Positions 4,028 through 55,975 of a DNA stretch of 64,000 nucleotides are shown here, one piece after another. Made by a program: the position numbers and the translations under genes. The notes under the pieces are model-generated. The model ran no database searches. It had not been told where the DNA came from and worked only from the letters and a program-made list of their open reading frames with translations. Numbering within the stretch: the first letter of the stretch is position 1; each line of letters starts with the position of its first letter. Source of the DNA: Vulcanimicrobiota bacterium (GTDB lineage: Bacteria > Vulcanimicrobiota > Xenobia > Xenobiales > JADMJV01); assembly GCA_050250895.1 (NCBI GenBank), contig JBFWNU010000002.1:503659-567658 (forward strand), read 5' to 3'.

Positions 4028-4099
4028 CGAGATTTCTTCGGGGGGGAGGAACTCTTTCCTGGGAGTCAAACGGGCGCCAGCAATAGTTTCGAGGAGTGC

Positions 4100-5281
4100 A
4101 TGATGAGGAATTCGACGATCGGTCTGGCTTTGGTGACTACCTTGCTGATGGGATGTGGTCAGCCGCCGGCGACTACGGAAACGCCCGTCGCCCAGGCCAC
4201 CAGTCTGGCCGAGACGCCGGCCGAGGTGGGCACCCCCGAGGCGGCCCCCGCCGCCGACGAGGCCACCGTCAAGCTGGCCGAGCAATTGGGTCAGAAGATC
4301 GCCGACGGCAAGCTGGAGTATAAGGAAAAAAACGAGAAGAGCAACGGACCCGGCTTTCTTTACCTGGCCTCGACGTCGGAGGATCCCAAGGTCCTGGCCG
4401 AAGCCCTCGACGGCATGAGCAAGACCTATTCGAGTTACACTCGCTCCGATAAGCGCAATCCCGTCGATGAGGCCTACGTCGCCACGGTCTCGAAGCACCT
4501 GGCCAGTGAGGATAAAGCGGTGAGATACTGGGCGCTGCAGGCCGCCGGCCAGGCCCTGATCGAGAATCCCGACTCGGGCCCGATCGCCTCCCTCAATAAG
4601 ATCGCTAGCGACGACAAAGAGTTGGGTGCTCGCTATGAGGCTCTCGAGTCGCTGGCCAAGAACCGTGATTGGGACAAGAGTGACGAGACGGTCCAGGTCT
4701 TTCTGAAGGCGTTAGAGGACGAGCCGGCCGTGATCAGTATCGCCCTCTTTCGGCTCGAGGGTAAGGTCCGCTCCATCAGCTCCAAGGAGGAGTTCGCCAG
4801 CCGCACGCGAGCCTTGCTCAAGCACCAGGACCCGGGCGTGCGCGGACGAGCCACCAAGATTTCCACCCAGGTGGTAGCCGATGACGGCCAGGCTGAACTG
4901 GCAAGCGAACTCGAGGGGATGCTCAAGGATGAGAACGCCTTTGTTCGCTCCGAGGCGGCCGAAGCGCTCGCCCACCTGCGCCATCTTTCCTCCACCGAGA
5001 AGATCGTGGCTCTGCTCGATGATCATGAAAAGAACACCTACGATATCAAGTTCGACAACCTGCTGGGACGCAAAGACACGGTGCACCACGACGGAAGCGC
5101 CTGGTCTCGGGTCGATGACTCGGCCCTGCACGCTCTCGAGACCATGAGCGTTCGCCTGGGTGACAAGAAGTTCACCTACGCCAAGATCGACTACAAGAAG
5201 GTGGATGAGGACATCGCCCGCGAGGTGAAGCGAGCCAAAGATTGGTTCAAGGCCAACCAGGCTGAGCTGGCCAAAGGCTAA
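4100..5281 (+). CDS. HEAT-repeat lipoprotein
   Basis: Lipobox LLMG-C; HEAT motifs LLKHQDPGVRGRA and LKDENAFVRSEAAEALAHL; GAGGAG RBS. Confidence 0.88.
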   Translation: MMRNSTIGLALVTTLLMGCGQPPATTETPVAQATSLAETPAEVGTPEAAPAADEATVKLAEQLGQKIADGKLEYKEKNEKSNGPGFLYLASTSEDPKVLAEALDGMSKTYSSYTRSDKRNPVDEAYVATVSKHLASEDKAVRYWALQAAGQALIENPDSGPIASLNKIASDDKELGARYEALESLAKNRDWDKSDETVQVFLKALEDEPAVISIALFRLEGKVRSISSKEEFASRTRALLKHQDPGVRGRATKISTQVVADDGQAELASELEGMLKDENAFVRSEAAEALAHLRHLSSTEKIVALLDDHEKNTYDIKFDNLLGRKDTVHHDGSAWSRVDDSALHALETMSVRLGDKKFTYAKIDYKKVDEDIAREVKRAKDWFKANQAELAKG

Positions 5282-11528: not shown

Positions 11529-14129
11529 ATGGATCTCAGCAAATTGACAGTCAAAGCTCGCGAAGCGCTCACCTCGGCCGAGACCGTGGCGCGCCGCAGC
11601 CAGCACCAGGAGGTGGGAAGTTTGCACCTTCTGGCCGCCTTGCTCTACCAGGAAGGCGGCATCATTCCCCCGTTGCTCGAAAAGGCCGGCGTGCCCGTGC
11701 GCGAGTTGCATCTACGGTTGCAGCAGAAGCTCGGCTCGGGGCCAAAGGTCGACGGGGCCGACAACTACATCGGTCGCGAGCTCAAGAAGGTGCTCGACGC
11801 ATCTTTTGACGAGAAAGACCGCATGGGTGACGACTATGTTTCGACCGAGCACCTTCTATTGGGGCTGCTCAGGGCCAAGTCTGAAGCCGGCAAGTTGCTT
11901 GGCGAATTTGGACTTAAACCGGACAAGCTTGAAGAGGCTCTACAAGCCATTCGCGGGGGGCAGAAGGTCACCGATACCGAGCCTGAAGGTAAGTATCAGG
12001 CCCTCGAGCGTTATACTACCGACCTGACCGCGCTGGCCCGCGAAGGCAAGCTCGACCCGGTCATCGGTCGCGACGAAGAGATTCGCCGGGCCATGCAAGT
12101 GTTGTCTCGTCGCACCAAGAACAACCCGGTGCTCATCGGTGAGCCCGGCGTGGGTAAGACGGCTATTGTGGAAGGCATTGCCGGCCGTATCGTGGCCGAA
12201 GACGTGCCCGAGAGCCTGCGCCGCAAACGCGTGCTGGCGCTGGATCTGGGAGCGTTGGTGGCCGGAGCCAAATACCGCGGTGAGTTCGAAGAGCGCCTGA
12301 AGGCCGTGCTGCAAGAAGTGACCAAAGCCGAAGGCTCGGTCATCCTCTTCATCGACGAACTTCACACCCTGGTGGGAGCTGGCGCCGCCGAAGGGGCCCA
12401 GGACGCGGCCAACATGCTCAAGCCGGCCTTGGCCCGCGGCCAGCTGCGCTGCATTGGGGCTACTACCCTCGACGAGTATCGCAAACACGTTGAGAAGGAC
12501 AAGGCTTTGGAGCGGCGATTCCAGCCCGTCTATGTGGGCGAACCGAGCCTTGACGATACTATCGCCATCCTGCGTGGCCTAAAAGAGAAGTATGAAGTCC
12601 ACCACGGCCTGCGCATCGAGGATGCGGCCACCGTGGCGGCGGCCAAGCTTTCTCATCGCTATATCGCCGACCGCTTTTTGCCTGACAAGGCCATCGACCT
12701 GATCGACGAAGCGGCCAGTCAGATCAAGATGGAGATCGAGAGCGTACCGGCCGTCATCGACCGAGCCCAGCGAGAGATCACCCGTCTTCAGATCGAAGAG
12801 CAAGCCCTGCAGCTCGAGGACGAAAAGGTAGCCGGCGACCGCCTCAAGGTGCTACGCGGCGAGATTGCCGAGAAGCAAGAGGAGCTTGGAGGGATGAGGG
12901 CTCGCTGGCAGCAGCAGCGCGATCTCGTCCACCAGGCTCGCGACCTCAAAGAGCAGCTCGACCGCCTCAAGACCGAAGCCGAGCAGGCCCAACAGCGCAA
13001 CGAGCTGCAACGCGCGGCCGAGATTATGTATGGCGAAATCCCTCGCCTGCAGAAAGAACTCGACGCCGCCCAGCAGCGTCTGGATGAGGCCCGCGAACAG
13101 GGCAGTTTCTTGCGTGAAGCGGTGACCCCGCAGGACATCGCTGGCATCGTGAGTCGCTGGACGGGTATCCCCGTCGACAAGATGCTCGAGGCCGAAAGCG
13201 AGCGTTTGCTCAAGATGGAGGACCGCCTGCGCCTGCGCGTGGTGGGTCAGGACGAAGCGGTGGTGCGGGTGGCCAAGGCCATTCGCCTGGCCCGGGCGGG
13301 TTTGCAAGACCCCAACCGGCCCATCGGCTCGTTCCTCTTCCTGGGTCCGACCGGCGTAGGTAAGACCGAGCTGGCCAAAGCCCTGGCCGAGTTCCTCTTC
13401 GACGACGAGCGCAATATGGTGCGCATCGATATGTCCGAGTATATGGAAAAGCACGCCGTCTCGCGCTTGATCGGTGCGCCTCCCGGTTACATCGGCTATG
13501 ACGAGGGCGGTCAGTTGACCGAAGCGGTGCGCCGTCGACCCTACTCGGTGGTGCTGCTCGACGAGGTCGAGAAAGCGCACCAGGACGTCTTCAACGTGCT
13601 GTTGCAGGTGATGGACGATGGGCGCCTGACCGATGGTCAGGGGCGCACGGTGGACTTCCGCAACACCATCCTCATCATGACCTCCAACATTGGCTCCACC
13701 CACCTGCTCAACGAGCCCGACGAAGAGCGGGCCACCAGGTTCGTGGAGGCGGCGCTGCGCGAGCACTTCCGGCCCGAGTTCCTCAACCGGATCGACGCCC
13801 GCATCCTGTTCCATCGCCTCGACCAGAAGGTCATCCGCGACATCGTGGACATCCAGGTGCGCAGTATCGAGCACCTGCTGGCCAACCGCGGTCTGACCAT
13901 CGAACTCGACGACGCGGCCCGCGACTACCTGGCCGAAGTCGGCTACGACCCCGCTTTCGGGGCGCGTCCGCTCAAGCGAGCCGTGCGCGAGCACATCCTC
14001 GAGCCTCTCTCCGAGAAGCTCATCGGTGGCGAGATTCGCCCGGATTCGCTGGTGCGCGTGCGCAAGATCGGCGACGGCCTGGAGTTGACCGGAGTGATTC
14101 CCGACGTGGCTGGTGTGAGCCGGAACTAG
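11529..14129 (+). CDS. clpB: ATP-dependent chaperone ClpB
   Basis: [21 protein letters not shown], coiled-coil middle domain, [16 protein letters not shown]. Confidence 0.98.
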
Positions 14130-16529: not shown

Positions 16530-16552
16530 ACCGCAGGTGGACTATTGACTTA

Positions 16553-16710
16553 GGGCCTGTCAGGAAATAACTCGTGCATTCGGGGCGCCGATCCATCCCC
16601 TGTGGCTGCGTTGCGCTTCCCTTACATATTGCCGATATGCGCGGTCAGACGCGCCTTGCCACAGGGGCGCCTCAGCGCCCGGAATGCTACTCTTAATCCC
16701 TGACAGGCCC
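16553..16710. mobile_element. 158-bp MITE (IS5-like ends)
   Basis: Perfect 12-bp TIRs GGGCCTGTCAGG/CCTGACAGGCCC, TTA direct repeats at 16550-16552 and 16711-16713, nested internal inverted repeats, no ORF. Confidence 0.85.
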
Positions 16711-16738
16711 TTAGGCCAGGTCGTGCTATGATCACCGC

Positions 16739-16897
16739 GTGAAGACCTTCAATGTGCATGAGGCTAAGACTCACTTCTCGGCGATTTTGGCGCTGGTGAC
16801 CGCTGGTGAGGAGGTGACCATCGCAAAGGCCGGTCGCCCTGTGGCCATCATTTCACCTTTTCGTCCGCCGGTAGAGCTCCGGAAAGACTGGCTTTAG
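16739..16897 (+). pseudogene. Phd/YefM antitoxin, short (52 aa), no toxin partner
   Basis: Hand translation MKTFNVHEAKTHFSAILALVTAGEEVTIAKAGRPVAII; TATGAT 6 bp upstream; below the ORF-track length cutoff. Confidence 0.85.
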
Positions 16898-17140
16898 GGC
16901 CAGGGTTCGTATCTCCAGGCCCTCAAGATTGGAGGTCCCGCCGCAGCACAGACCTGGCCAACGAGTCAGCCAGGGCAACGTCCCCGCGGTCAAGGGCGAT
17001 CTGGGCCTGTCGCAAGACTCCGCGGCCCATCTAGAATAACAAGAGCAGGGCGGCAGAGCCCATCACCAGCGTCAGCCAGTAAGGCCAACCGGTCGAGTCT
17101 AGCTCTTTGAGCAACCAGAAGACCAGCAACGACAGCCCGG
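16896..17140 (-). pseudogene. diverged partial copy of 23145..23392 (fragments of two small genes)
   Basis: Colinear similarity including an exact 36-mer CACCAGCGTCAGCCAGTAAGGCCAACCGGTCGAGTC; small indels. Confidence 0.85.
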
Positions 17141-22909: not shown

Positions 22910-23281
22910 TTAGTGATTCCCATCCCCCAAGCAACTTGCTCGAGCTTCGGCTGCTCGGGCTTTGTCGGGCAGGGCCGCCTCTCGATAGAGCCCGGCGGCC
23001 TCGCGCAGGCTCCAAGCAGCGGAGTCAAGCTGGTCGAGTCTGATCTGAAACTCTGCGGCTTGCTCGTAGTAGGCTCCATCACCCGAGACCACTCCGGCCT
23101 GGGAGCTGGTAATCGCGGCGTAGCTGAGCTTGCCAAGCGCCTCGAGGGCGAGGGTTCGTATCTTCAACCCTTCAAGATTGGACAGGTCCCACCTGAGCAC
23201 AGACATGGCCAACGAGTCGGCCAGAGCGAAATTCCCGCTATCGAGGGCGATGCGCGCCTGCCGCAAAACGCCACGACTCAT
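22910..23281 (-). CDS. small TPR-like hypothetical protein
   Basis: Helical Ala-rich ORF 1 bp after the upstream gene; partly duplicated at 16896-17030. Confidence 0.6.
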   Translation of the reverse strand: MSRGVLRQARIALDSGNFALADSLAMSVLRWDLSNLEGLKIRTLALEALGKLSYAAITSSQAGVVSGDGAYYEQAAEFQIRLDQLDSAAWSLREAAGLYREAALPDKARAAEARASCLGDGNH

Positions 23282-23282
23282 C

Positions 23283-23567
23283 TTAAAACAAGACGAGCAG
23301 GGCGGCGGAGCCCACCACCAGCGTCAGCCAGTAAGGCCAACCGGTCGAGTCGAGTTCTTTAAGCAGCCAGAAGACCAGCAAGGACAGTCCGGTGGCCCCC
23401 ACCAGAATGACCAGCACCCGGCTCCACTCGCCGGTGAAGGCCACATCGAAGATCAGGCCGTTGGTGAATAAACAAGCCCCGTAGAGGGCGGCGCAAACCT
23501 TGGGCTGGCCGGTCTGGATCAACACCTTGATCAACATTGGGATGAGGAAGAGCTTCAGCAGCAGCAC
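23283..23567 (-). CDS. small membrane protein (94 aa)
   Basis: About four hydrophobic segments; 3' end duplicated at 17031-17140. Confidence 0.7.
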   Translation of the reverse strand: MLLLKLFLIPMLIKVLIQTGQPKVCAALYGACLFTNGLIFDVAFTGEWSRVLVILVGATGLSLLVFWLLKELDSTGWPYWLTLVVGSAALLVLF

Positions 23568-33400: not shown

Positions 33401-35251
33401 AAGCTTGAGGGGCCGACTCTGGCTCGGGTGCTCGAACTCTACAGCCAACGGCTGCACTCCCAGCCCCATCCCCTCGGGGCCCTGGTGGCTTTGCTAGAGC
33501 GCGGTCAGGGCCCCCAGGCGCTCCCGGTTCTGGCCGAACTCGAGGCCAATTTGCCAGCCGGTCAATTGCTAGGTCGCATCGACCAGCTCGACCAGCTACA
33601 GGCCTTCTCTAAGGGCTACAGCTCGGCCGGCAACTACGCCACACCGGCCCAGCTCTCGAGCTGTCTCGACCGCCTGGCTGCGGCCGGCCTGAGTCCCAAA
33701 GCTCAGACCTCGACTTGCCAGGCCGTCTGCCAGAAACTGGTCGGCTCGGGCGACCGCCGCGAGGGGCTGCCCCGGGCCCTCCAACACCTGGGTAGCATCG
33801 CCGCCGAGCCGGAGCGCGTCGAAGCCTTCCAGTTGCTGCTCGACCACGATTATCACGCTTCGGGGGCGGCCCAGATCGAGTCACTACTGGCGGAACCCGG
33901 GGCCGGACTGTCGCTCAGCGAGCGGCGCTCGGCCTATGAGAAACTCGGCCTGCTCGAGGCCCCGTCGCCGCTGAGTTTCTATGCCGTGAAGATGGCCAGC
34001 TATAGAACCTGGCGCTCCGTTGCTCAGGCCCGCGATGGCCACACCGCTCTCACCCAGATCGGCAAGCTCAATCAAACGCTGCTTCAGCTCAAGCTCGGCA
34101 GCCCGGACGCCCAGGCCGCCATCGCCGGGGGCGAGAAATACCTGCTGCAGAACGACCAGATTTTTGAGGCTTACCGTGCGCTGCTCGAGGCTGGTTTTGG
34201 CGTTGACGCCTGCCAGCGCGTCCTGGACCAGGCCCATAAGGTTCCGGCCGCAACCACCGCGGCCATCCTGGCCCCCCTGGCCAAGGCGTCTGACCGGGTG
34301 GTCGCGGCCTTTCAGCAATGCGCCGAAGAGACCGCCTCGGCCGGACATGATCCTGCCACTCTCGCTTTCCTGGCGGCCGGCGTTGGGTGTCACGAAGATG
34401 CCGAGGCCGTGAGTCGGGTCAGCTTGAAGCTCTTCAAAGCCCGTCTCGCCGAGCAACCCGAGCTGGCCGAAGCTGCCGGTCGACTGTTGCAGGCCAGAGT
34501 CGGTCCGAAAGCGGTGGCCGAAATCCTGACGGTCTTCGAGTCCAACTCGGCGTCGCCGAATGAGCAATTCGAGGCCCTAGAGGCCTCGGGCGTCTTTCAC
34601 TTCGGTAGCGAGTTGGCCCCTACAATGGCTAAGGGCCTGGCCACTCTGCTGGCCCGAGGACACACCTGCTCGCAGGCGGGCAAGTTGCTGGCGACACGCT
34701 GGCAAAAGGTCAGTCGTTACCAGGACGCCGAGCGCCGCGACGCCCTCGGCTATCTGGCCAGTTCAGAGCACGAAGACCTGTTTTTTGAACTCAGAGACAA
34801 GCATTTCCATAGCCTGCCGGCCGGGCAATTCGCCGACCTGCTCGCCAAGCCCCTGGCCGGTATCGACCTCAAAGCCCGTCTGAGCGCTTTCACCGCTCTG
34901 ACCGAGGGTTCCGAGGTCGGCCGGTTTTACGCCGTCAAAGGCGCGGCCTATCGGCTCTATGCGAAGATGGTCACCGGAGGCGGTAATCCCGACCAGGTGC
35001 CCGGCCTGGTTCGCGACCTGCTCCACCGCATGGACAAGATGGAGCCGGCCAAAGCCCAACGCCTGCTCGACACCCTGCGCCAGCTGCCCAATACCGCTGG
35101 CGCCCTGGCCAACCTTTTGACCCTCGAAGGTGCCGAGGCGATGACCCTGGCCCTACAACAGCTGGAACTACAAGCCGGCGGCGGCAAAAAGCTGGCCATC
35201 GAAGAGGACCTGGTCAACATCGACGGCTTTGAACTAGCCGTGCGAGACTGA
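30500..35251 (+). CDS. 1583-aa alpha-helical protein with four ~320-aa repeats
   Basis: Long ORF; (F/Y)Y(T/A)VK motif at nt 32024, 32990, 33977 and 34925. Confidence 0.88.
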   Translation: MQIRPYGQVGPRLTRRLAQPARAAIGSSDTVSLAVGRSGHAPVPVATAAAAAVGGPVGPTLAERLKELPVEYHLKKWLRLPFCSPTERITPHHAAQALQNVPHRLLVKEGEGDPVPLSSLDDVKELEVFYGLREPFDKLSEVLCDTRLEPYAWQTQVTAYQAYNLAQNGWPEAKVEPQRITLLRQGLPVANLEAGNLVRELATVPSKSQEIDAVQTPEQRLTYVAGYSNDETIAGRLGQAGMGQWAETIQELARDSDLETAARLMTTIGLSDPEFSSKLKVASPFLKDLVSAQKLLDLYTKARQGGASAERASQTLARFSALAVGRNSAALGYAEDLTSDLGSLAVFNDCLERLSGEEAARLHRVLGNSKLQPGDHFRLLERTPAFGKEYGQPLYTRPEAASVFARGLTGVLEAGRSADEAVEVAQRLWAGVSQLDRAGDYLEPAWNEAAKLAADPKSLELYASLVEAKFHPEAAAHLQGVMRATGATSADLKSMQALDLIEGPRPLAFYTVKEKAWTAFANSRRPDALEELQRLGKHLVALKLEAQPAGAAFDYYADHLSSDGRKFEAYMQLLEGGFTPVEAQRTQQRWPQTDLSQVARLGASRAPSEVVDAFLSALEHHPANQELKPLVEAAVGARFESKSLLQLANYFEQAGNEPAVTRTLTRLVGHRLPCDQAIALLEKMQAKAGAKDLEQHLTWLEQAGAFVSDYDHPRYHQAEAPAHLYSALSGMLEAGIPAGEATATIVSCWRTLGNERKWNDLSTACAHLAAMASDRKQLESYQALLSNHFDVPQARRAVERLGRPVKGTDFSLRWQDYQALQLHSGGKPLSYYTVKDACLTAYSGALEAGQERAHTVAQLRQLGQALEGRGANEGQQAFDFYPDLMAHPGHFGTYVTLLKAGFPAERAIQAVGSTFDCDADRLATVLTGLGSRGDHLTPELVDSFLSAFRATNQSPALAPLAETAARQKLEGPTLARVLELYSQRLHSQPHPLGALVALLERGQGPQALPVLAELEANLPAGQLLGRIDQLDQLQAFSKGYSSAGNYATPAQLSSCLDRLAAAGLSPKAQTSTCQAVCQKLVGSGDRREGLPRALQHLGSIAAEPERVEAFQLLLDHDYHASGAAQIESLLAEPGAGLSLSERRSAYEKLGLLEAPSPLSFYAVKMASYRTWRSVAQARDGHTALTQIGKLNQTLLQLKLGSPDAQAAIAGGEKYLLQNDQIFEAYRALLEAGFGVDACQRVLDQAHKVPAATTAAILAPLAKASDRVVAAFQQCAEETASAGHDPATLAFLAAGVGCHEDAEAVSRVSLKLFKARLAEQPELAEAAGRLLQARVGPKAVAEILTVFESNSASPNEQFEALEASGVFHFGSELAPTMAKGLATLLARGHTCSQAGKLLATRWQKVSRYQDAERRDALGYLASSEHEDLFFELRDKHFHSLPAGQFADLLAKPLAGIDLKARLSAFTALTEGSEVGRFYAVKGAAYRLYAKMVTGGGNPDQVPGLVRDLLHRMDKMEPAKAQRLLDTLRQLPNTAGALANLLTLEGAEAMTLALQQLELQAGGGKKLAIEEDLVNIDGFELAVRD

Positions 35252-35358
35252 GCGCTCGCTGCGCTCGCGGGAAAAGGAGCGCTCGCTGCGCTCACGGGAA
35301 AGGAGCGCTCGCTGCGCTCACGGGAAAAGGAGCGAAGCTCGCTGAGTTCGCTCCTTTC
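35250..35358. repeat. three tandem 26-27 bp REP-like units plus terminator-like hairpin
   Basis: GAGCGCTCGCTGCGCTC(G/A)CGGGAAA(A)G x3, then AAAGGAGCGAAGCTC-GCT-GAGTTCGCTCCTTT, between convergent genes. Confidence 0.9.
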
Positions 35359-44742: not shown

Positions 44743-45138
44743 ATGAGTAACGAAGAAGGCACCCGCGACAACCCCTGGCAGCTCAAGACCCCTCCAGGCA
44801 GCTCGGAATACACCATGTATCGCGATGGAGACCGACTGGTCTGCCAGGTCGGCAAGACCACCCTCTTCTACGACGCCCGCTGCCTCGAGGACCTACCGGC
44901 TATGTTGCGCGAAGCCGGGGATTGGGTTCTGCTCGGGAGCGCCGACGAGAACAAGCCCGCCGCCGCTGGCACGGTCGAGGCCTGGGGCCGCTCACCCGAC
45001 AATCCCATCGGGGGCTGGTATGGCCTCAAGAAAGGCCTGCGTGGCCGGTTCGCCATGTACGTGCCGCCACTGCTCGAGCGGCTCGGCCTGGTTGAACTCG
45101 AGCACCAGGCCCGCAACAATCGGGTGCGCGCACTCTAG
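44743..45138 (+). CDS. conserved hypothetical protein (DUF6855-like)
   Basis: PWQLKTPPGSSEYTMY...LGSADE..VEAWGRS..NPIGGWYGLKKGLRGRF. Confidence 0.8.
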   Translation: MSNEEGTRDNPWQLKTPPGSSEYTMYRDGDRLVCQVGKTTLFYDARCLEDLPAMLREAGDWVLLGSADENKPAAAGTVEAWGRSPDNPIGGWYGLKKGLRGRFAMYVPPLLERLGLVELEHQARNNRVRAL

Positions 45139-45535
45139 AGGTCGATCACGATCGGCGGTCGCGTAGGGCGGTAGTCTTCGTCGCAAATGCAGGCGTTGAC
45201 AAATCGCGTCGGCCCTTCCTGCAGTTGCCCATAGCCCAGATGCACATGGCCGAAGACATGAAGTTGATGCCGTGCTTGACCCACATTTCGGCATAGCGAC
45301 GATGCTTGTAGAACGGCCAGTCGTGGTTGCCGGCGATAAAGAGCTTGTGCCGGTGAGGCTGGCGCCCGAGCCAGGCGTCGAAGGCCTTGACCTCGCCTTT
45401 GGTTCCATGGTTGCAGAGGTCTCCCGCGTGAAGCAAAATATCACCCTCGGGCACTTCCACCTGCTCGTGCAGACTATGGGTGTCAGACAGGCAGACGACT
45501 CTTGGCGAGATCGCGACTTCGTCCACGGTGGGCAT
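45135..45535 (-). pseudogene. metallophosphoesterase with internal deletion and frameshift
   Basis: SDTH, HAGD and GNHD in one frame; C-terminal HVFGHVHLGYG...FVNACICDEDYRP..PIVIDL* in another frame; middle region absent. Confidence 0.88.
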
Positions 45536-45565
45536 CTGGCCATCTTTCCCCGCGCCGCGTCGGCG

Positions 45566-45876
45566 GGTTGCCTGGCAGCCGAGCTGCGGCGAGCCGACTT
45601 CCGCGGACCACGCTGCCGAGTGGCCAAACCCGCCGCGCCCGCCAGCGGCGCCGTCTCTTCCAGCTGGAATATGGGACCGTGGGGCAGGGCGAAGTGGCCA
45701 TTGCGACCGTGGCCAGGCGGCGGTTGCCTGGCAGCCGGGCAGAGGGCCCCCAGGTTTGCCCGGCGCGAGCCGACAACACCGCTGCGGGCGAGCCTAATTC
45801 GGCGGACCACGCTGCCGAGTGGCCAAACCCGCCGCGCCCGCCAGCACCGCCGACTCTTCCAGCTGGAAGATGGGAC
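45566..45876 (+). repeat. two composite repeat units downstream of the HNH gene
   Basis: Exact 44-mer at 45603-45646 and 45802-45845; TTCCAGCTGGAA at 45658 and 45857; GGTTGCCTGGCAGCCG at 45566 and 45722. Confidence 0.9.
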
Positions 45877-45928
45877 TCCACGGGCCCACACGTTCCAGTC
45901 GAGTGAGGCGGCCAATGCCTGGGGTCTC

Positions 45929-47167
45929 TCACGGCGAGAGCGCTCCTGGCACCAGTGGCGGGCCGGCGGCCGGCCAGGGTCCCAGGGCTGACCCGACCGC
46001 CCGGCGTTGCAGAGCGGCATCCCGGGCAGCCCGCCATTCCGGTCGATTCGCGAAGTCTTGGTCGTGCTCAGCAGCGTGGCAACCCGGACACAACAGCTCC
46101 AGGTCCTCCAGTCGATGTCGCCTGGTGTCGGACCAGGCGCGAACGTGATGCACTACCAGGTTACCTCCCGTGCACGAACAACGCTCACAACGGCCCAGAG
46201 CCCGGGCATACACCGCTCGCACCAAGCCAACCGGAAGCCCCGGCCGGGTCTTGGACCGAACCGGTTGCAGCGGCAACTGCTCGGCTTGGCCACTTCCAGC
46301 TGAGAGTCTCGTGTCGGCGCAAGCCACCACGATGCCGGGTTCTTTCATCGCCTCGTCAACGGCCTCCGGCTCGGCCGGTAAGAGTCCGCGGTCGGTATCA
46401 TAAAAGCCCTGGCCGGTCTCGGCGTTCACGTGAACGATGACCTGATGTCGCACTTTGCTGCGATTGTCGGCTGAGGCCAGCACCAATCTAGCCATCTCGG
46501 CCACCGCCGTCTCCTTGCTCACCCGCTTGCCCCGGCGGGCCTCGACCAGACGCTTCGCCTGCTCGTAGCGAGCGTATTGCTCGGGCGTCATCAACAGAGT
46601 GACCTGCCTTAACTTCGGCACTTCGGGGACCGTGGCTGGCTGGATGGTGGGGGTCGAGGCCGGCTTCGCGGGCTCATCTACCGTTAGCTCGGGCTGACTC
46701 TGGCGAGCTTCGAGCGAGGCCTTTAGGGCCTGGCCACGCTTGTGCTGCGTGGGAGTCACAGCGACGGCGCGCTCGACCGCCTGAGCCTTGTTCTTGAGAG
46801 CGAACTCCAGCATTTCGGCCTCGTTCTCAGGCGTCGTGATCCGCTTCAGCGCGCGGACCTTGCTCCAGCAGAGTCTGCCCTCGCGAAAGGCTTCTGAAAG
46901 AAGAGGCAGTTGCTCGAGAGTCTTGGCCAGACTGAGAAGTTCGCCGGCCTTTTGGGGATGCAGATTTAAATGGGTAACGGCGTAACCCACGGCACTGCCG
47001 CTGCCCAGGTGGCGATAGAGGCCGCTGCGCTCGGTGGCCAGCAGATGGGCTGCCAGTTGCCACTCGCAACCAAAGGCCCGCTGGCTCGCCTGGTGATTTC
47101 TTTGATGGAGTTCCTGGTGGGAGAGTTGTTGCAGCGATTGAGAAAACACCGATAAAGTTAAAGACAT
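45929..47167 (-). CDS. DUF222-like / HNH endonuclease (412 aa)
   Basis: ATG 47167 after GGAGGT; LPLLSEAFREGRLCWSKVRAL; RCERC...VHHVRAWS...LELLCPGCHAAEH. Confidence 0.9.
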   Translation of the reverse strand: MSLTLSVFSQSLQQLSHQELHQRNHQASQRAFGCEWQLAAHLLATERSGLYRHLGSGSAVGYAVTHLNLHPQKAGELLSLAKTLEQLPLLSEAFREGRLCWSKVRALKRITTPENEAEMLEFALKNKAQAVERAVAVTPTQHKRGQALKASLEARQSQPELTVDEPAKPASTPTIQPATVPEVPKLRQVTLLMTPEQYARYEQAKRLVEARRGKRVSKETAVAEMARLVLASADNRSKVRHQVIVHVNAETGQGFYDTDRGLLPAEPEAVDEAMKEPGIVVACADTRLSAGSGQAEQLPLQPVRSKTRPGLPVGLVRAVYARALGRCERCSCTGGNLVVHHVRAWSDTRRHRLEDLELLCPGCHAAEHDQDFANRPEWRAARDAALQRRAVGSALGPWPAAGPPLVPGALSP

Positions 47168-47468
47168 AAGACCTCCGGTCGAAGAAGAATCAAGCAGTGA
47201 TCTCATTTTACTCAAGAAAATCACCTTGATCAACGCGTTCAAACGGCTTGGCTGCAGCGTTTTGTTGGCTCTGCGCAGGTTTGCGCGAGAAGGGCTTGCG
47301 GTGGCGAAACGACTTCGCCAGCCCTTGGTGTCGTGGGAGTGGCTGACAGCGCCGGGCAGGGGCTGCTGCGAGGAGTTTGAGGTCGGACCTGTGTTCACTA
47401 GAAAGCTCGTCTCTGCGAATGTTAAGGTTTGATAATATTGTGCGGCGGCATCGGACTCGCCAGGACCG

Positions 47469-47960
47469 CCAACTGGAAGACGGGCTTCGCAGGCCCACCC
47501 CGGCCAGCCCGAGGGCCGCGACCCGCCGGGCAAGACCAGCCAGGTGCCGACGACGGTCGCGGCGTCTGCAAGACGGCCCCGCCCCTTGCCAGCGGCGCCG
47601 GGCTCACCCGCCGCGCCGAGTCCTTCCAGCTGGAAGACGGGCTTCGCCAGCCCACCCCACCCAGGCCCGGTAATTCGGCAGCACCCACTGACGAGTTCGG
47701 CGTACCACGCTGCCGAGTGCCAATCCGCGAGCCCGCTCGCGGAGTCGCCGAGTCCACGCGACTCGCCAGCCCCGAGTACTTCCAGCTGGGGGCCCAACTC
47801 GCCGAGCCCGCCACCCGCCGAGAACACCAAGACAGGGCTCGCCTCGCGGCGCCGACTACTTCCAGCTGGAAGACGGGATACGTCAGGCCCGCCTCCCAGG
47901 CCCGACAGATTCGGCAGCCCACACTGCCGAATTCGGCGTGCCATGCTGCCAAATGGCCTA
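47469..47960 (+). repeat. composite repeat array upstream of the HNH gene
   Basis: TTCCAGCTGGAA at 47624 and 47860, variants at 47469 and 47780; TTCGGCGT(A/G)CCA(C/T)GCTGCC at 47696 and 47932. Confidence 0.88.
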
Positions 47961-48067
47961 CCCGTCGCCCCTCGCCAAGACCCGCCAAGCCCCCCGGGCT
48001 CGCCGAGGCCACAAAAGCTCGCCGAGGCAAGAGCTCGCCGAGCCCATCGGACTCACCGCGCCCACGG

Positions 48068-49003
48068 TTAGCGCAGTGAGGCGGCTAGCGCCTCGAGGAG
48101 AGCGGGGGCGGTGGGGCGGGCGGGACGGGGGGTGAGGCAGAGTAGCTCGAGGTAGCTATCGGCCCAGGGCAGGGAGCGGACGGCGCCGCCCCATTCCTGG
48201 CCCTGCCAGAGGAACTCGGCCTGAGCGCCTTCTTGCCAGAACAGTTCGTCGGCGAGGTCTTCGAGGCGACGGGGCGAAGCGGTGCGGCGTAGCGCTAGCA
48301 GGGTTCGCCAGCCGCCGAAGGTCGGACGGGCATAGCAGTTCTCCAGGGGTGAGTCGGGCAGGGGCGAGAAGCCCTCGGGGATGGTGGCCATGAAGGCGCC
48401 GGAGTGGATGCCGCCGGTGGCGGGAGGGCAGAGCTGGAAGGCGTCCCGGAAGGTCTTGGGCAGAGCGCGCACCCGACTTAGGGGGTGAGCGGGGCAGACT
48501 TTGTCGTGGACAGCCGCATCGCACGGCTCGTAGAGGGTCGGGCGAGGAGGGTAGAGCCAGTGCTTCGGACGTTGCCAGAAGCGCGGCGGCGGAGGATAGC
48601 TGAAGCCGTAAGGGTCGGCCGGGGGTCCGGGAGCAGCTACCAGGCGCGAGCGGGGCTGGCTCTTGACTGACTCGGCCGCCATGAACGTGAATTCGAAGTG
48701 ACCTTCGGCCACCGGCACGAGCTGGTGCAGGCGATAGGCCAGGCCGTGCTCGAGGGGGTATTTGATAGCGCCCGCGAGGCCATGAGAAGTCAGTTCGCAG
48801 CTGAGCAGGCCTCCTCCCAGGGTGGCCGCCAACCAGCGCAGGTCGTGGCGATAGGTGTCCAGCAGGTCGGGAGCCAGCGAAAGGGGGAGCGGACGATAGT
48901 CAACCGCCACTCGGTCGCTGTGGCGGGTGGTCCAGCTGAGGGAAGTGGCCGTCTGCTCGACCGGCCACCAGCCAGGCGGCGCTTTGAAGTCTAGGTGCTT
49001 CAA
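48068..49003 (-). CDS. hypothetical protein
   Basis: 311-aa ORF with a 4-bp overlap to the Clp-like gene; HPLSRVR motif. Confidence 0.7.
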   Translation of the reverse strand: MKHLDFKAPPGWWPVEQTATSLSWTTRHSDRVAVDYRPLPLSLAPDLLDTYRHDLRWLAATLGGGLLSCELTSHGLAGAIKYPLEHGLAYRLHQLVPVAEGHFEFTFMAAESVKSQPRSRLVAAPGPPADPYGFSYPPPPRFWQRPKHWLYPPRPTLYEPCDAAVHDKVCPAHPLSRVRALPKTFRDAFQLCPPATGGIHSGAFMATIPEGFSPLPDSPLENCYARPTFGGWRTLLALRRTASPRRLEDLADELFWQEGAQAEFLWQGQEWGGAVRSLPWADSYLELLCLTPRPARPTAPALLEALAASLR

Positions 49004-51186
49004 AGCGAGATCGTCACCTCCCGGCCGTCATAGTCCAGGCGCAAGGTGGAACCGCGAAGGCCCGGGTGGGTGACCAGAAAGCGGGCCAGCGGCGTAACCA
49101 CCGCCTCTTCCACCAGACGCTGCAGGGGGCGGGCTCCGTAGCGACGGTCGTAGCCCTGGTGGGCCAGAAAGTCGAGCAGGGCCGGCGTATAGCTCAGTCG
49201 CAAGCTGCGGCTGGCCAGTCCCTCGCGAGTGTCCAGGCGAGCCAGTTCGAGCTCGGCGATGTGGCGAACGGTGACAGGCTCGAGGGGGTCGAAGGGAATG
49301 ACCGCGTCGATGCGGTTGAAGAACTCGGGTCGAAAAAAGGCTTTGACCTCGTGCTCAGGGGGAGGCGCCGCTCGATCGGGCGTCAACCCCAGGGCCGGCC
49401 GAGGTGTGCCCAGGTTGCTGGTCATCAAGAGCAGAGCGCTGCGAAAGGTCGTGACCCGGCCCAGGCCATCGAGCAGACGACCTTGATCGAACAAACTCAA
49501 GAGCAGGTCGAAGATTTCCGGGGCGGCTTTTTCGATCTCGTCAAACAAGATCACCGAGAAAGGTTGAGTGCGCAGGCGACGCACCAGCGGTCCGGGCTTC
49601 TGCGAGCTGCCCAGCAAGCGCTCGGCAGCGCCCGGGCCGGAGAACTCGGCCATGTCCAGGCGCAGCAGTCGTTGTTCGTCACCGAAGAAGAAGCGGGCCA
49701 GGGCCTTGGCCATCTCGGTCTTGCCCACTCCCGTGGGTCCCGTGAACAGCAGTACTCCCAACGGGCGTTCAGGGTCGTTGAGGCCCGCTTTGAAGGTCAA
49801 GACCGTCGAGGTGACTCGACGGCAGGCGGCCGGCTGCCCCACCACCTGGGCCTGGAAGGTCTCGAAGACCTCGTCGGGCTCGAGGGTGAGATCATCGCGC
49901 AAGAATACCTCTTGCAGCCCGGTGATGCGCGAGAATTCGTTGACCACTCGAGGTAGGTCAGGGGCGGTGTCCTGGGCCAGCAGGGTGCGGAAGAATTCAG
50001 CGCTCGGTCCGGGAAAGGCCCGGTAGGGAAGGAAGCGCTGGTGAAGCTCGTAGATGGCCGTGACGATCTCGGGATGCACGCTGACGCGAGCACTATCGGC
50101 CATCTGCTGTAGCACGTCCAGAGCTTCCAGCCGGCGAAACTCGGGCATGGGGTGGATCTCGAACAGTTCGGTCAGCCCGGGCATCAGGCGACGGCACACC
50201 TCGAGTTGGGCAGGCGTGCTCTCGGCCACCATTCTAAGTTCACCCCGTTCGAGGTAGGGTCGAAAGAACGAGGCCAGGCTGTAGTCCGTTCCGGAGCTTC
50301 CCACCGTGATCAGGGCTAGCAGGTTGTCGAGGCATAGCCAGCCGTCGCACGCGGTGAGTTCCTCCACCAACCGCTCGCAGCGTTCTTCCCATTGGCCTAG
50401 ATAGCGCATGCCGGCGATGATGCGGGCTGCCCCGGTGTAGTGAAAGCGCGGGCGCCCGCCCCGGCTGCGCCCGATTTTGCGGGCCACTGCGGCAGCCAGA
50501 GTCGTCTTGCCGGCTCCTGGGGGCGCCACCAGCAGCACGTTGCTCTGCCGTTGCGTCAAGGCCGTAACCAGGCTTTCTTGCAGTAGCCTGCGACCATAGG
50601 CTGGGCCGAGCTGGCGACGGTATTCGGGCGAGTCGAGAGGGTCGGCCACCGCCTCTAATTGACCGGCCCTGGCCAACAACGGACCGCTCGAGGCGACCGT
50701 ATTCTTGCTCCGCAAGAAACTCAGCCATAGCTCGTCTGGCGGCAGGTAGGCTCGCAACTGGCGGGGGGTGAGATGGGTCAAGCGCTCACGAACGTAATGA
50801 CGGATCAGTTTTCGCAGCGAGCGCTTTTCTTGGAAGAAGAATTGCAGATTCAACAGGGGCAGCGAGCACAGTCCCAGGCCGGACCGATGGCGCGCGGCCA
50901 CCGCCACCACCGGCACCGGCAACTCCACTGGGTAGGGGTGGAGCCGGCCCTCTTCTTCGAATTCTGGCCGGACTTTGACCTCGAGCCGCAGCAGCTCGGC
51001 CTCGCTCAGGGTCGTGTGAGGGGGCGCCAGGTCCTCGTTCTGGCGCTCGGCCAACTGGCCACGCAGGTGGAGCATGGCCTCCTTTTCGGTCTCTCCCGCT
51101 CCAACCAGGCTGGGGTCCTCGACCAGCATGGCCAGGTGACGTTGCCGGAACTTCCAGACCAGAGTGGGAAACTGCGCGCTCGACAT
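49000..51186 (-). CDS. ClpA/B-like double AAA+ ATPase with atypical N-terminus
   Basis: [45 protein letters not shown]. Confidence 0.9.
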   Translation of the reverse strand: MSSAQFPTLVWKFRQRHLAMLVEDPSLVGAGETEKEAMLHLRGQLAERQNEDLAPPHTTLSEAELLRLEVKVRPEFEEEGRLHPYPVELPVPVVAVAARHRSGLGLCSLPLLNLQFFFQEKRSLRKLIRHYVRERLTHLTPRQLRAYLPPDELWLSFLRSKNTVASSGPLLARAGQLEAVADPLDSPEYRRQLGPAYGRRLLQESLVTALTQRQSNVLLVAPPGAGKTTLAAAVARKIGRSRGGRPRFHYTGAARIIAGMRYLGQWEERCERLVEELTACDGWLCLDNLLALITVGSSGTDYSLASFFRPYLERGELRMVAESTPAQLEVCRRLMPGLTELFEIHPMPEFRRLEALDVLQQMADSARVSVHPEIVTAIYELHQRFLPYRAFPGPSAEFFRTLLAQDTAPDLPRVVNEFSRITGLQEVFLRDDLTLEPDEVFETFQAQVVGQPAACRRVTSTVLTFKAGLNDPERPLGVLLFTGPTGVGKTEMAKALARFFFGDEQRLLRLDMAEFSGPGAAERLLGSSQKPGPLVRRLRTQPFSVILFDEIEKAAPEIFDLLLSLFDQGRLLDGLGRVTTFRSALLLMTSNLGTPRPALGLTPDRAAPPPEHEVKAFFRPEFFNRIDAVIPFDPLEPVTVRHIAELELARLDTREGLASRSLRLSYTPALLDFLAHQGYDRRYGARPLQRLVEEAVVTPLARFLVTHPGLRGSTLRLDYDGREVTISL

Positions 51187-54129: not shown

Positions 54130-55975
54130 TTCCGAAGCCCTCTTCCGAGTGCACTTGCAGGTCACCGTTGTGAGCCTCGACCAACCCCATGACCTCGACC
54201 AGACCCAGGCCTCGTCGCGCTTTGCGAGTAGTGAAGAAGGGCTCGAAGGCAAGCTCCCGAGCGGCCGCGTCCATACCGTGCCCGTCGTCCTGAATATCTA
54301 ACACAATTCGACCGTGGACCTGGCTCCAGCCGGTGGTCAGGGTGACCTGACCCTGGCCGTCTACGAAGGCGTCGGCGGCATTGCGGACCAGCTCTTTGAT
54401 GACTTCGAGCAGGGCTGCAGGATCGGCTAGCACCGGCGGTAGACCCACGGCCAGATTCATGACGCAACGAGCCGGCGCGAGCATGGACTCGAGCTCGGGC
54501 AACAGCGAACTCAGGAGTTCGTTGAGGTCCAACGAGCGCGGCTCGACCAGGCCTTCGGCGGCGCTCGATACGAGCTTTCGGCACAGTTCCGTGACCCGCC
54601 CGGCGGCGCTACGGATCTCGGCCACGAGGGCGGGCCGGTCGCTGTCTGGCTGGGAAAGGACGAGCTGGTCGACCCGGGCCAGGATGGTTTGAAGGTGCTT
54701 GTTGAGGATGTGGGCCACCGCTCCGATCAGGCGGCCTTGACCGAGTCGCCGCTCGTTCACCTCGCGGGTCAGGTCCGCTCGCTGATCCAGCAACAGGCGC
54801 AGATTGGTTACGTCGCTGATGAGCACCTGGCGAGCGCCGGTAGGGTCGACCCGCAGGTCGACCAGAGCCAGAAATCCCCTTTCGGTCTCGCCGCGCTGTA
54901 GCCAGATCTCTCGCTCGCCTCCTTCACTCAGAAACGCCTTCAGCTGGGCTTGCTGCTCGAGCCCCGCCAGATCATAGAGCGAGAGGCCCTCGATTTCCTG
55001 GCGTTTGAGACCGAAGAGGCCGCAGGCGGTCAGGTTGGCGCTGGTGACGCGAGCCTCGGCGTCTACGGTCAGGTAGCCGGCCGGGGCATACTCCCAAAGG
55101 TTTCGATAACGGTCCCGTTCATGCTCGAGGGCGAGTTTGGCTTGATGGAGCTCGGTGTTGCGCATCTCGAGCATGACCTTGTGCAGGCGAAGCTCTTTCA
55201 GAGGCTCGCCGGTCTCCTGGTCAGACACCGCTGCCAGGGCCCTTTCCCGTAGCTCGCTCAGATAGCTCGGGCTCAGCTGGCCGCGCTGGGAGAATGGCTC
55301 GAGAAAGCCGGGCGGAGGCCAGGGCAGGTGAATAGCCACGACCGTGCCCTGGCCGGGCCGGCTTTCCAGCTGGCAGCGGCCGCCCAGGAGTTCGGCTCGC
55401 TCAGAAAGGCTGGCCAGACCCAGGTTGGCGCTGCTGGCCTTGACCCGCTCAGGCTCGAATCCGACACCCTGGTCTTCGACCCGCAGCACCAGTTCTCCGG
55501 GCAGGTGACCCAGCCATATCCGAGCTCGATGGATCTGGGCGTGCCGCACCACGTTGTGGACGGCTTCCTGGGTCATGCGGAAGAGATTGCCTTTGAAGAT
55601 GGGAGGCAACTCGGTATCATCGAGCTCGATCTCGAGGTCGAAGGTGACACCGCTATCGGTGCTCATGCGGTCCAGCAGATCCGACAGCATCTCGCCGAGG
55701 CCAAAGTCTTCCAGGCTGGGTGGGCGCAGCTCACCAATTAGACGACGACCTTCCACCACGGCATTCTCCAGGCGCTCCGAGGCCGTGCTCAACAGCCTCG
55801 GGTCGGGTCGGCGGCGAGCCTTGTCGACCAGCAGGCGGGCCCCGATGACGAATTGCAGCAAGCCATCGTGGAGTTCACGCGCCAGCGACAAACGTTCTTG
55901 TTCCTGGGCCTGCAGCAGCCTGTCTACCAGGGTCCTCAGGCGGTCCCTTTCGAGGCGAAGATTGTCGGTTATCAC
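54095..55975 (-). CDS. double histidine kinase: HisKA_3-HATPase, PAS, HisKA-HATPase
   Basis: ERLSLARELHD/QEAVHNVVRHA/DQGVGF and AVAHILN/LVRNAADA/DDGHGM/FEPFFTT. Confidence 0.88.
   Translation of the reverse strand: MITDNLRLERDRLRTLVDRLLQAQEQERLSLARELHDGLLQFVIGARLLVDKARRRPDPRLLSTASERLENAVVEGRRLIGELRPPSLEDFGLGEMLSDLLDRMSTDSGVTFDLEIELDDTELPPIFKGNLFRMTQEAVHNVVRHAQIHRARIWLGHLPGELVLRVEDQGVGFEPERVKASSANLGLASLSERAELLGGRCQLESRPGQGTVVAIHLPWPPPGFLEPFSQRGQLSPSYLSELRERALAAVSDQETGEPLKELRLHKVMLEMRNTELHQAKLALEHERDRYRNLWEYAPAGYLTVDAEARVTSANLTACGLFGLKRQEIEGLSLYDLAGLEQQAQLKAFLSEGGEREIWLQRGETERGFLALVDLRVDPTGARQVLISDVTNLRLLLDQRADLTREVNERRLGQGRLIGAVAHILNKHLQTILARVDQLVLSQPDSDRPALVAEIRSAAGRVTELCRKLVSSAAEGLVEPRSLDLNELLSSLLPELESMLAPARCVMNLAVGLPPVLADPAALLEVIKELVRNAADAFVDGQGQVTLTTGWSQVHGRIVLDIQDDGHGMDAAARELAFEPFFTTRKARRGLGLVEVMGLVEAHNGDLQVHSEEGFGTTVRLLLPKGE

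Follow-up and report, generated by a model that had tools for sequence, protein, structure and literature searches.

The 13E12 (REP13E12) genes of Mycobacterium tuberculosis and other Actinomycetota encode proteins that combine a DUF222 domain with an HNH nuclease domain, and this widespread, multicopy DUF222/13E12 family is poorly understood. According to the accessible parts of two reports, M. tuberculosis has 19 DUF222 proteins (PMC13157036), its 13E12 genes show DNA-damage/LexA induction and include a phage attachment site (PMC3381160), and the mycobacterial copies undergo frequent homologous recombination and are linked to large inversions driven by recombination (PMC3381160, PMC13157036). 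In those parts of the literature that our search could reach, neither a mechanism of spread nor a DNA target was found for the family. Here we analyzed a gene of this type in a 64,000-nt stretch of a Vulcanimicrobiota (Eremiobacterota) genome (GenBank assembly GCA_050250895.1, contig JBFWNU010000002.1, positions 503,659 to 567,658). This whole stretch is called the window, and window-wide counts refer to all 64 kb. The gene (45929..47167, minus strand) encodes a 412-residue DUF222+HNH endonuclease (P0001), as judged from its translation, Pfam matches, relatives, and AlphaFold2 (AF2) models, and it lies between two arrays of composite repeats. It shares with the actinobacterial genes the same two Pfam domains and the lack of a transposase and of terminal inverted repeats. 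It differs in its phylum, in belonging to a set of proteins that are 73 to 92% identical, and in having composite arrays with 16-bp palindromes on both sides, which were not found described for the family in the literature searched. New here are the family of relatives in Vulcanimicrobiota, the 16-bp extent of the palindrome, the ParB-like fold suggested for the N-terminal domain, and the predicted homodimer.

ParB with parS, Noc with its binding sites (NBS), and SopB with sopC are systems in which dimers with two reading heads bind 14- to 16-bp palindromes, and sopC adjoins sopB. The DNA-binding domains of these proteins are the only credible structural neighbors of the P0001 N-terminal domain (at weak E-values), a dimer is predicted here too, and 16-bp palindromes are clustered beside the protein's own gene. 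Unlike ParB, P0001 has no N-terminal ParB/Srx CTPase domain in Pfam, carries an HNH domain, and has no sequence-level match to ParB; in addition, no ParA was found in a Pfam scan of 60 open reading frames (ORFs) of the window. The same scan detected no transposase, integrase, RAYT (tyrosine transposase associated with repetitive extragenic palindromic [REP] sequences), or Y1 transposase, and no terminal inverted repeats were found at the locus. An earlier annotation made from the letters alone (here called the sequence-only reading) had likewise reported neither transposase nor terminal inverted repeats. A free-standing HNH homing endonuclease gene is also a lone nuclease gene with a promoter-like site, no transposase, and flanks that could be used as homology arms. 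Unlike homing endonuclease genes, the gene studied here probably occurs in many copies per genome, has a palindromic rather than a long asymmetric candidate site, and is associated with no intron or intein. IscB with its omega-RNA (HEARO) and the RAYT-REP/REPIN systems likewise place a nuclease gene beside repeated, hairpin-forming noncoding DNA. However, unlike IscB, P0001 has no RuvC domain, and Rfam gave no HEARO match; P0001 is not a RAYT because it lacks a Y1 transposase domain, and unlike in RAYT-REP, the modules on the two flanks point the same way rather than being inverted. Unlike in an integron cassette array, no integrase domain is encoded among the 60 ORFs.

The arrays are built mainly from two modules, A and B. 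Exact copies of module B, TTCCAGCTGGAA, are present at 45658, 45857, 47624, and 47860, and with at most one mismatch, 5 matches were counted in the window, compared with 0.17 expected; none of 100 shuffles reached 5. The fifth match in this pattern count, with 1 mismatch, lies at 55364. Module B extends to a 16-bp palindrome, TCTTCCAGCTGGAAGA (4 matches with at most one mismatch versus 0.03 expected), that is perfect at 45855-45870 and retains 15 of 16 positions at 45656, 47622, and 47858. Degenerate copies of module B are present at 47469 and 47780. Module A, a hairpin, was found with at most one mismatch at 45599, 45798, and 47696 (3 copies versus 0.00 expected), and a fourth, degenerate copy lies at 47932. 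Profiles built from the 4 A copies and 6 B copies detected no further copy at an E value of <0.1 with nhmmer in the 64 kb outside both flanks, and other long intergenic gaps (for example, at about 16.5 to 17.2, 23.4 to 23.7, and 35.9 to 36.5 kb) contain no module copies. The sequence-only reading had placed both modules at these positions, on both sides of the HNH gene, and within the 64 kb its placement was borne out at frequencies far above chance. The spacing that it gave, of about 199 bp on the left and 236 bp on the right with the same orientation on both sides, was also recovered.

On the left, the tandem has a period of 199 nt, of which 96 nt is repeated at 92% identity. Its unit 1 (45583..45677, plus strand) consists of the module A hairpin (45599-45622) followed by a palindrome (45656-45671, 15/16), and unit 2 (45781..45876, plus strand), which is 92% identical to unit 1, contains module A at 45798-45821 and the perfect palindrome. 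Each left unit is preceded by one copy of an extra short module that begins with GGTTGCCTGGCAGCCG (45566-45589 and 45722-45745, plus strand, 88% identical; repeat family D8). On the right, the period is 236 nt, with 216 nt repeated at 73% identity, and a partial third unit is present. The partial unit, R0 (47456..47510, plus strand), carries the degenerate module B CCAACTGGAAGA at 47469 and a 3' extension. Unit R1 (47600..47809, plus strand) contains a palindrome (47622-47637, 15/16), an imperfect second hairpin termed A' (47673-47696), module A (47696-47719), and a degenerate module B (47780-47791). Unit R2 (47835..48045, plus strand), 73% identical to R1, contains a palindrome (47858-47873, 15/16), a perfect A' hairpin (47910-47931), the degenerate module A (47932-47955), and three CTCGCCGAG motifs (47999-48042); in both right units A' precedes module A. 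The window contains nine CTCGCCGAG motifs, four of which are inside the right array. Modules A and B and their adjoining bases are common to both flanks, with 74 to 86% identity over 42 to 70 nt in the same orientation, whereas the modules are ordered differently: the left flank reads A-59 nt-B and the right flank B-72-A-84-B(degenerate)-80-B.

The arrays are noncoding, because neither of their periods (199 and 236 nt) is divisible by three and because the copies occupy different reading frames; coding repeats were rejected on these two grounds, and none of four flank ORFs had a Pfam match. Since the copies are only 73 to 92% identical, a collapsed-assembly artifact is ruled out; the sequence-only reading had named an assembly artifact as a possible refutation. 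An ORF across the right array is also on record from a 16,303-nt contig (P0030). Debris of the HNH gene was considered as another source of the arrays and was rejected: the best array-gene matches scored 24.0 and 26.8 bits, near the level of 60 random 1,239-nt control segments (means, 22.0 and 23.9 bits; maxima, 25.4 and 32.6 bits). The partial module B copy that the sequence-only reading placed inside the gene at 46294 is indeed present, but its likeness to the arrays is at chance level. This partial palindrome (46293-46307, minus strand) encodes LSAGS here, and nearly all paralogs have LPAGS at the position. Separately, a 19-nt direct repeat (84% identical, copies 2,173 nt apart) is found at 45902-45920, immediately after the stop codon of the HNH gene, and at 48075-48093, in the 3' end of the neighboring 311-residue gene; it may be a chance occurrence or a trace of cassette arrival.

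P0001 comprises a helical N-terminal domain (residues 1 to 157), a middle domain (about 190 to 276), and an HNH/zinc finger core (about 312 to 375). Pfam HNH (PF01844) matched residues 327 to 370 with 35.1 bits against a cutoff of 21.4 (1.5e-8), and DUF222 (PF02720) matched residues 21 to 154 with 26.7 bits against a gathering score of 24.4 (4.4e-6), a match limited to profile positions 1 to 136 of 306. The start codon was set at 47167 because all relatives begin at the same methionine. A ribosome-binding site, GGAGG, was read from the sequence at 47172-47176 (minus strand), and a promoter-like site, TTGATC-17-TAAAAT (47205..47233, minus strand; 1 found versus 0.3 expected), recognized by its match to consensus only, lies about 38 nt 5' of the start codon, between the right array and the gene.

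A homolog search, in which 8,000 candidates were scored, returned 29 proteins with E values of ≤0.001, the query included. At least 12 relatives are full length (390 to 443 residues) and 77 to 83% identical, all under the name of a Vulcanimicrobiota metagenome-assembled genome (MAG), and fragments were found besides. For two relatives, P0011 (413 residues) and P0017 (303 residues), the longest contig is 984,708 nt, as it is for P0001, and for the others it ranges from 122 kb to 3.9 Mb. Pairwise identity among 14 full-length proteins is 73 to 92% (mean, 81%), and the fraction of sequences sharing the majority residue is 0.90 to 0.94 in the folded domains compared with 0.73 to 0.81 in the linkers. 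No substitution was seen among 17 sequences at the HNH/zinc motif residues C327, C360, C363, H340, H341, H364, and H368. Judging from the conserved folded domains and the invariant Cys and His residues, the set looks like a maintained and active protein family rather than like decaying copies. The Pfam matches and the relatives also uphold the assignment made by the sequence-only reading, by which P0001 is the product of a multicopy DUF222+HNH gene of the 13E12 (REP13E12) type.

Sequence matches of P0001 to solved structures were confined to the HNH core (McrA, the IscB HNH domain, and a group II intron maturase). The AF2 model of the full-length protein had a mean predicted local distance difference test (pLDDT) score of 73.6 and scores above 90 across residues 1 to 130, and the N-terminal domain modeled alone reached a pLDDT of 89.6 and a predicted template modeling score (pTM) of 0.78. 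When the full-length model was compared with the Protein Data Bank (PDB), the HNH part matched McrA and Cap5 and the N-terminal domain matched Noc and Spo0J; the match to 6y93_B, in which the DNA-binding domain of Noc is bound to its site, had a template modeling (TM) score of 0.74 by target, a root mean square deviation of 3.0, and an E value of 0.25. For the N-terminal domain model, all 10 listed matches of probability ≥0.5 were DNA-binding domains of ParB, Noc, or Spo0J (E values, 0.48 to 2.7; TM scores, 0.31 to 0.49), followed by SopB-DNA complexes at 0.41 and by unrelated helical proteins at ≤0.30, mostly <0.12. The likeness of the DUF222 N-terminal domain to ParB suggested by these models is a consistent lead rather than proof. 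Homodimer prediction gave a score of 0.81, compared with 0.00 for the best of 3 controls; the runs agreed in at least 66% of contacts, with a partner pLDDT of at least 61. The mark used for calling a dimer was reached by 20 of 30 proteins whose solved structures are pairs of one chain and by 1 of 23 whose structures are single chains; these counts apply only approximately here, because the prediction was made with our own alignment. The predicted interface is symmetric and involves residues 2 to 102 and 184 to 263. The model thus suggests, and supports without demonstrating, that P0001 pairs as a symmetric homodimer.

Our favored explanation, which we hold tentatively, is that the locus holds, in a Vulcanimicrobiota chromosome, one copy of a selfish-type, multicopy 13E12 nuclease gene, equipped with its own putative promoter and situated inside a short noncoding composite repeat that was duplicated in tandem on either side; the dimer of its product would read the palindromes, and the gene would spread by homing. 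The palindromes are favored as the protein's own sites because a dimer and ParB-like heads are predicted and because four near-perfect palindromes adjoin the gene; on these models, a role of the palindromes as protein recognition sites is plausible. In the mechanism envisaged, the protein would form a symmetric dimer, its helical ParB/Noc-like DUF222 N-terminal domains would read the 16-bp palindrome in double-stranded DNA, and the HNH domain may nick or cut close by, so that the arrays would be binding or target sites of the protein itself. Breaks at array sites elsewhere may be repaired from the filled locus, with the same-orientation flanks serving as homology arms, and spread would be by homing or gene conversion and not by transposition. 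Such break-repair spread would be the simplest route because there is no transposase and the flanks have the same orientation. Binding of the protein at its own locus could also result in autoregulation. The DNA-damage/LexA control of the mycobacterial family and the frequent recombination between its copies may, by analogy, fit a recombination-based lifestyle of this kind; they also keep alive a reading of the palindromes as host operators, considered below. We regard it as unlikely that DUF222+HNH genes and arrays of their own palindromes make up a transposase-free mobile unit, in which a dimeric nuclease of ParB fold cuts arrays elsewhere and the gene is copied by repair; if this were true, the repeat family, which has lacked a mechanism ever since it was described in M. 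tuberculosis, would acquire one. The locus offers a concrete test, with a candidate 16-bp site beside the gene, a confidently folded N-terminal domain, and a predicted dimer. Confirmation of binding and cutting would assign a function to DUF222 and a mechanism to the family.

Several results weigh against the favored explanation. The fold matches have E values of 0.25 to 2.7, none of them ≤0.001, and no ParB was found by sequence search even at an E value of ≤10, nor in Pfam at ≤10. A model based on palindrome binding accounts neither for module A nor for the remainder of each unit. The pairing of arrays and gene comes from one locus. When 185,579 species genomes were scanned with a degenerate 24-nt pattern matching each of the four local copies of module A, one stretch was returned; the window's own locus was not returned, its source genome being absent from or masked in the scanned collection. 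The single stretch is a chance match, because it falls within a 715-residue ORF of an unrelated MAG from Deltaproteobacteria and neither an HNH gene nor module B is nearby, and module A is thus not a widespread conserved element. Translated-flank searches were blank: the minus-strand flank ORF (47425-48030) matched only the window's own ORF among 2,970 candidates, the plus-strand flank ORF (47429-48076) had no match among 1.84 billion representatives, and the upstream ORF (47211-47498) yielded 4 candidates but no hit. These blank searches have low sensitivity and are weak evidence, because frames shift quickly in noncoding DNA. Finally, a distant homolog on Rhodococcus plasmid NZ_CP050126.1 (43% identity over 70 residues), the only homolog with readable DNA, has flanks of 111 and 93 nt without such arrays.

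The sequence-only reading had also suggested comparing the inter-repeat segments with phages and plasmids; the 2.5-kb locus showed similarity to neither in blastn (distant mode), and the protein search gave 1 distant plasmid match and no phage match. As an observation on the Rhodococcus plasmid itself, a 26-nt near-palindromic motif beginning with ATTGGTCTAGTCCAAT occurs twice, 64 nt apart, at 4066-4155, directly after the stop codon of its DUF222-like HNH gene.

The same blank flank searches and the array-free Rhodococcus homolog would be expected if the arrays had no functional tie to the gene and were a lineage-specific interspersed or tandem intergenic repeat, such as a REP/bacterial interspersed mosaic element (BIME)-like or miniature inverted-repeat transposable element (MITE)-like sequence or a local duplication, into which the gene landed or which grew around it. 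The arrays do resemble mosaic REP clusters in their mosaic of A, A', B, CTCGCCGAG, and GGTTGCC modules of varying order and spacing, and the unit architecture differs between the left (A-59-B) and right (B-72-A-84-B). However, within the 64 kb the modules are confined to the intergenic gaps directly on either side of the HNH gene, other long gaps lacking them, the window encodes no RAYT or Y1 transposase, and the module A pattern is absent from the species genomes scanned except for the one chance match. On balance we consider an unrelated repeat somewhat unlikely; were the repeats such intergenic debris, the locus would count as an ordinary representative of a known family of selfish genes, here in a phylum that has received little study. 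A functional tie of another kind would exist if the palindromes were operators of a host regulator acting on the nuclease gene, comparable to the LexA boxes governing most 13E12 genes of M. tuberculosis, with the repeats as duplicated regulatory DNA. Perfect palindromes of 12 to 16 bp are typical of operators, but the palindrome sequence matches no LexA box known to us. In the mycobacterial case, as far as the accessible parts of the reports go, LexA binding peaks were found at six 13E12-family genes and others were DNA damage induced (PMC3381160), and LexA/DNA-damage control of the family is likewise described in PMC13157036. For a simple operator, 4 to 6 copies over 2.4 kb would be unusual. 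The closest upstream copy here (47469) lies about 235 nt 5' of the promoter-like site, and the best copies are either beyond the 3' end of the gene or >390 nt 5' of that site. We therefore judge host operators to be quite improbable.

The sequence-only reading had proposed that the repeats are either protein recognition sites or are transcribed into structured or guide RNAs, and it is the protein-site half of this proposal that received indirect support, from the palindrome, the ParB-like fold, and the predicted dimer. Some observations would fit arrays that are instead transcribed into RNAs programming the nuclease, as the omega-RNA (HEARO) does for IscB: module A forms 8 pairs, A' has a perfect 8-bp stem at 47910-47931, and the left array may be cotranscribed with the HNH gene, with no terminator-like site between the two. 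Of eight unit folds on either strand, three beat their shuffles (z ≤ −1.97; for example, z = −2.6 for 45781-45880 on the plus strand and −3.0 for 47840-47965 on the minus strand), but the other five were no better than shuffles. A covariation check was negative, with 0 of 8 pairs of the module A hairpin showing a compensatory change in only 4 sequences and 4 of 32 cells unpaired. P0001 is not an IscB, because it scored 27.4 bits against a cutoff of 175 for the IscB equivalog NF040563, over residues 319 to 378 (the HNH core) only; RuvC was also absent in Pfam. Rfam had no match at the gathering score, and at an E value of ≤1 over 45400-48200 it gave only Ms_IGR-5, at 17.5 bits versus 45, which is noise. 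In addition, the right array is upstream of the sole promoter-like site and outside the probable transcript. The guide-RNA reading is unlikely, and we assign RNA programming of the nuclease only a very small probability.

The genes around the locus all lie on one strand. Upstream of the HNH gene are a gene encoding a ClpB-like double-AAA protein (49000-51186) and a gene of 311 residues with no assigned function (48068-49003), the latter followed by a weak terminator-like hairpin at 48031-48018, and downstream is a broken metallophosphoesterase gene (45146-45535). The metallophosphoesterase gene adjoins the left array downstream, at about 45137-45535 (minus strand), and is broken: its 129-residue N-terminal ORF covers only profile positions 2 to 88 of 191, the middle of the domain is missing, and the C-terminal end (from LHVFGHVHLGYG to PPIVIDL and a stop codon) resumes in another frame. 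Another 49 ORFs of the window are ordinary chromosomal genes, including those for ClpB, a P-type ATPase, Usp, FtsH, HMG-CoA reductase, and two-component systems. The G+C content is about 63% throughout the window, with no compositional break at the locus, and the window contains no tRNA genes and no Rfam match at the gathering score. In a check for defense systems, PADLOC gave no match for the HNH protein or its 311-residue neighbor.

Two genes of the ClpB double-AAA type are present in the window, at 49000-51186 (minus strand) and 11529-14129 (plus strand). The former is atypical, encoding 728 residues without a Clp_N domain and scoring far under the ClpB equivalog level; its second AAA domain matched DolB in PADLOC (3.1e-25), and the gene overlaps the 311-residue gene by 4 nt. 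Elsewhere in the window, an intergenic gap of about 680 nt holds a 43-nt inverted repeat pair with a MITE-like look (16549-16714), whose arms are 77% complementary and separated by 80 nt. About 250 nt is duplicated at 78 to 89% identity at 16896-17140 and 23145-23392, 6.25 kb apart, upstream of two large genes without Pfam matches. A 27-nt tandem repeat (35250-35334; 3.2 copies, 94% matches), partly palindromic (GAGCGCTCGCTGCGCTC), directly follows an ORF of 1,583 residues.

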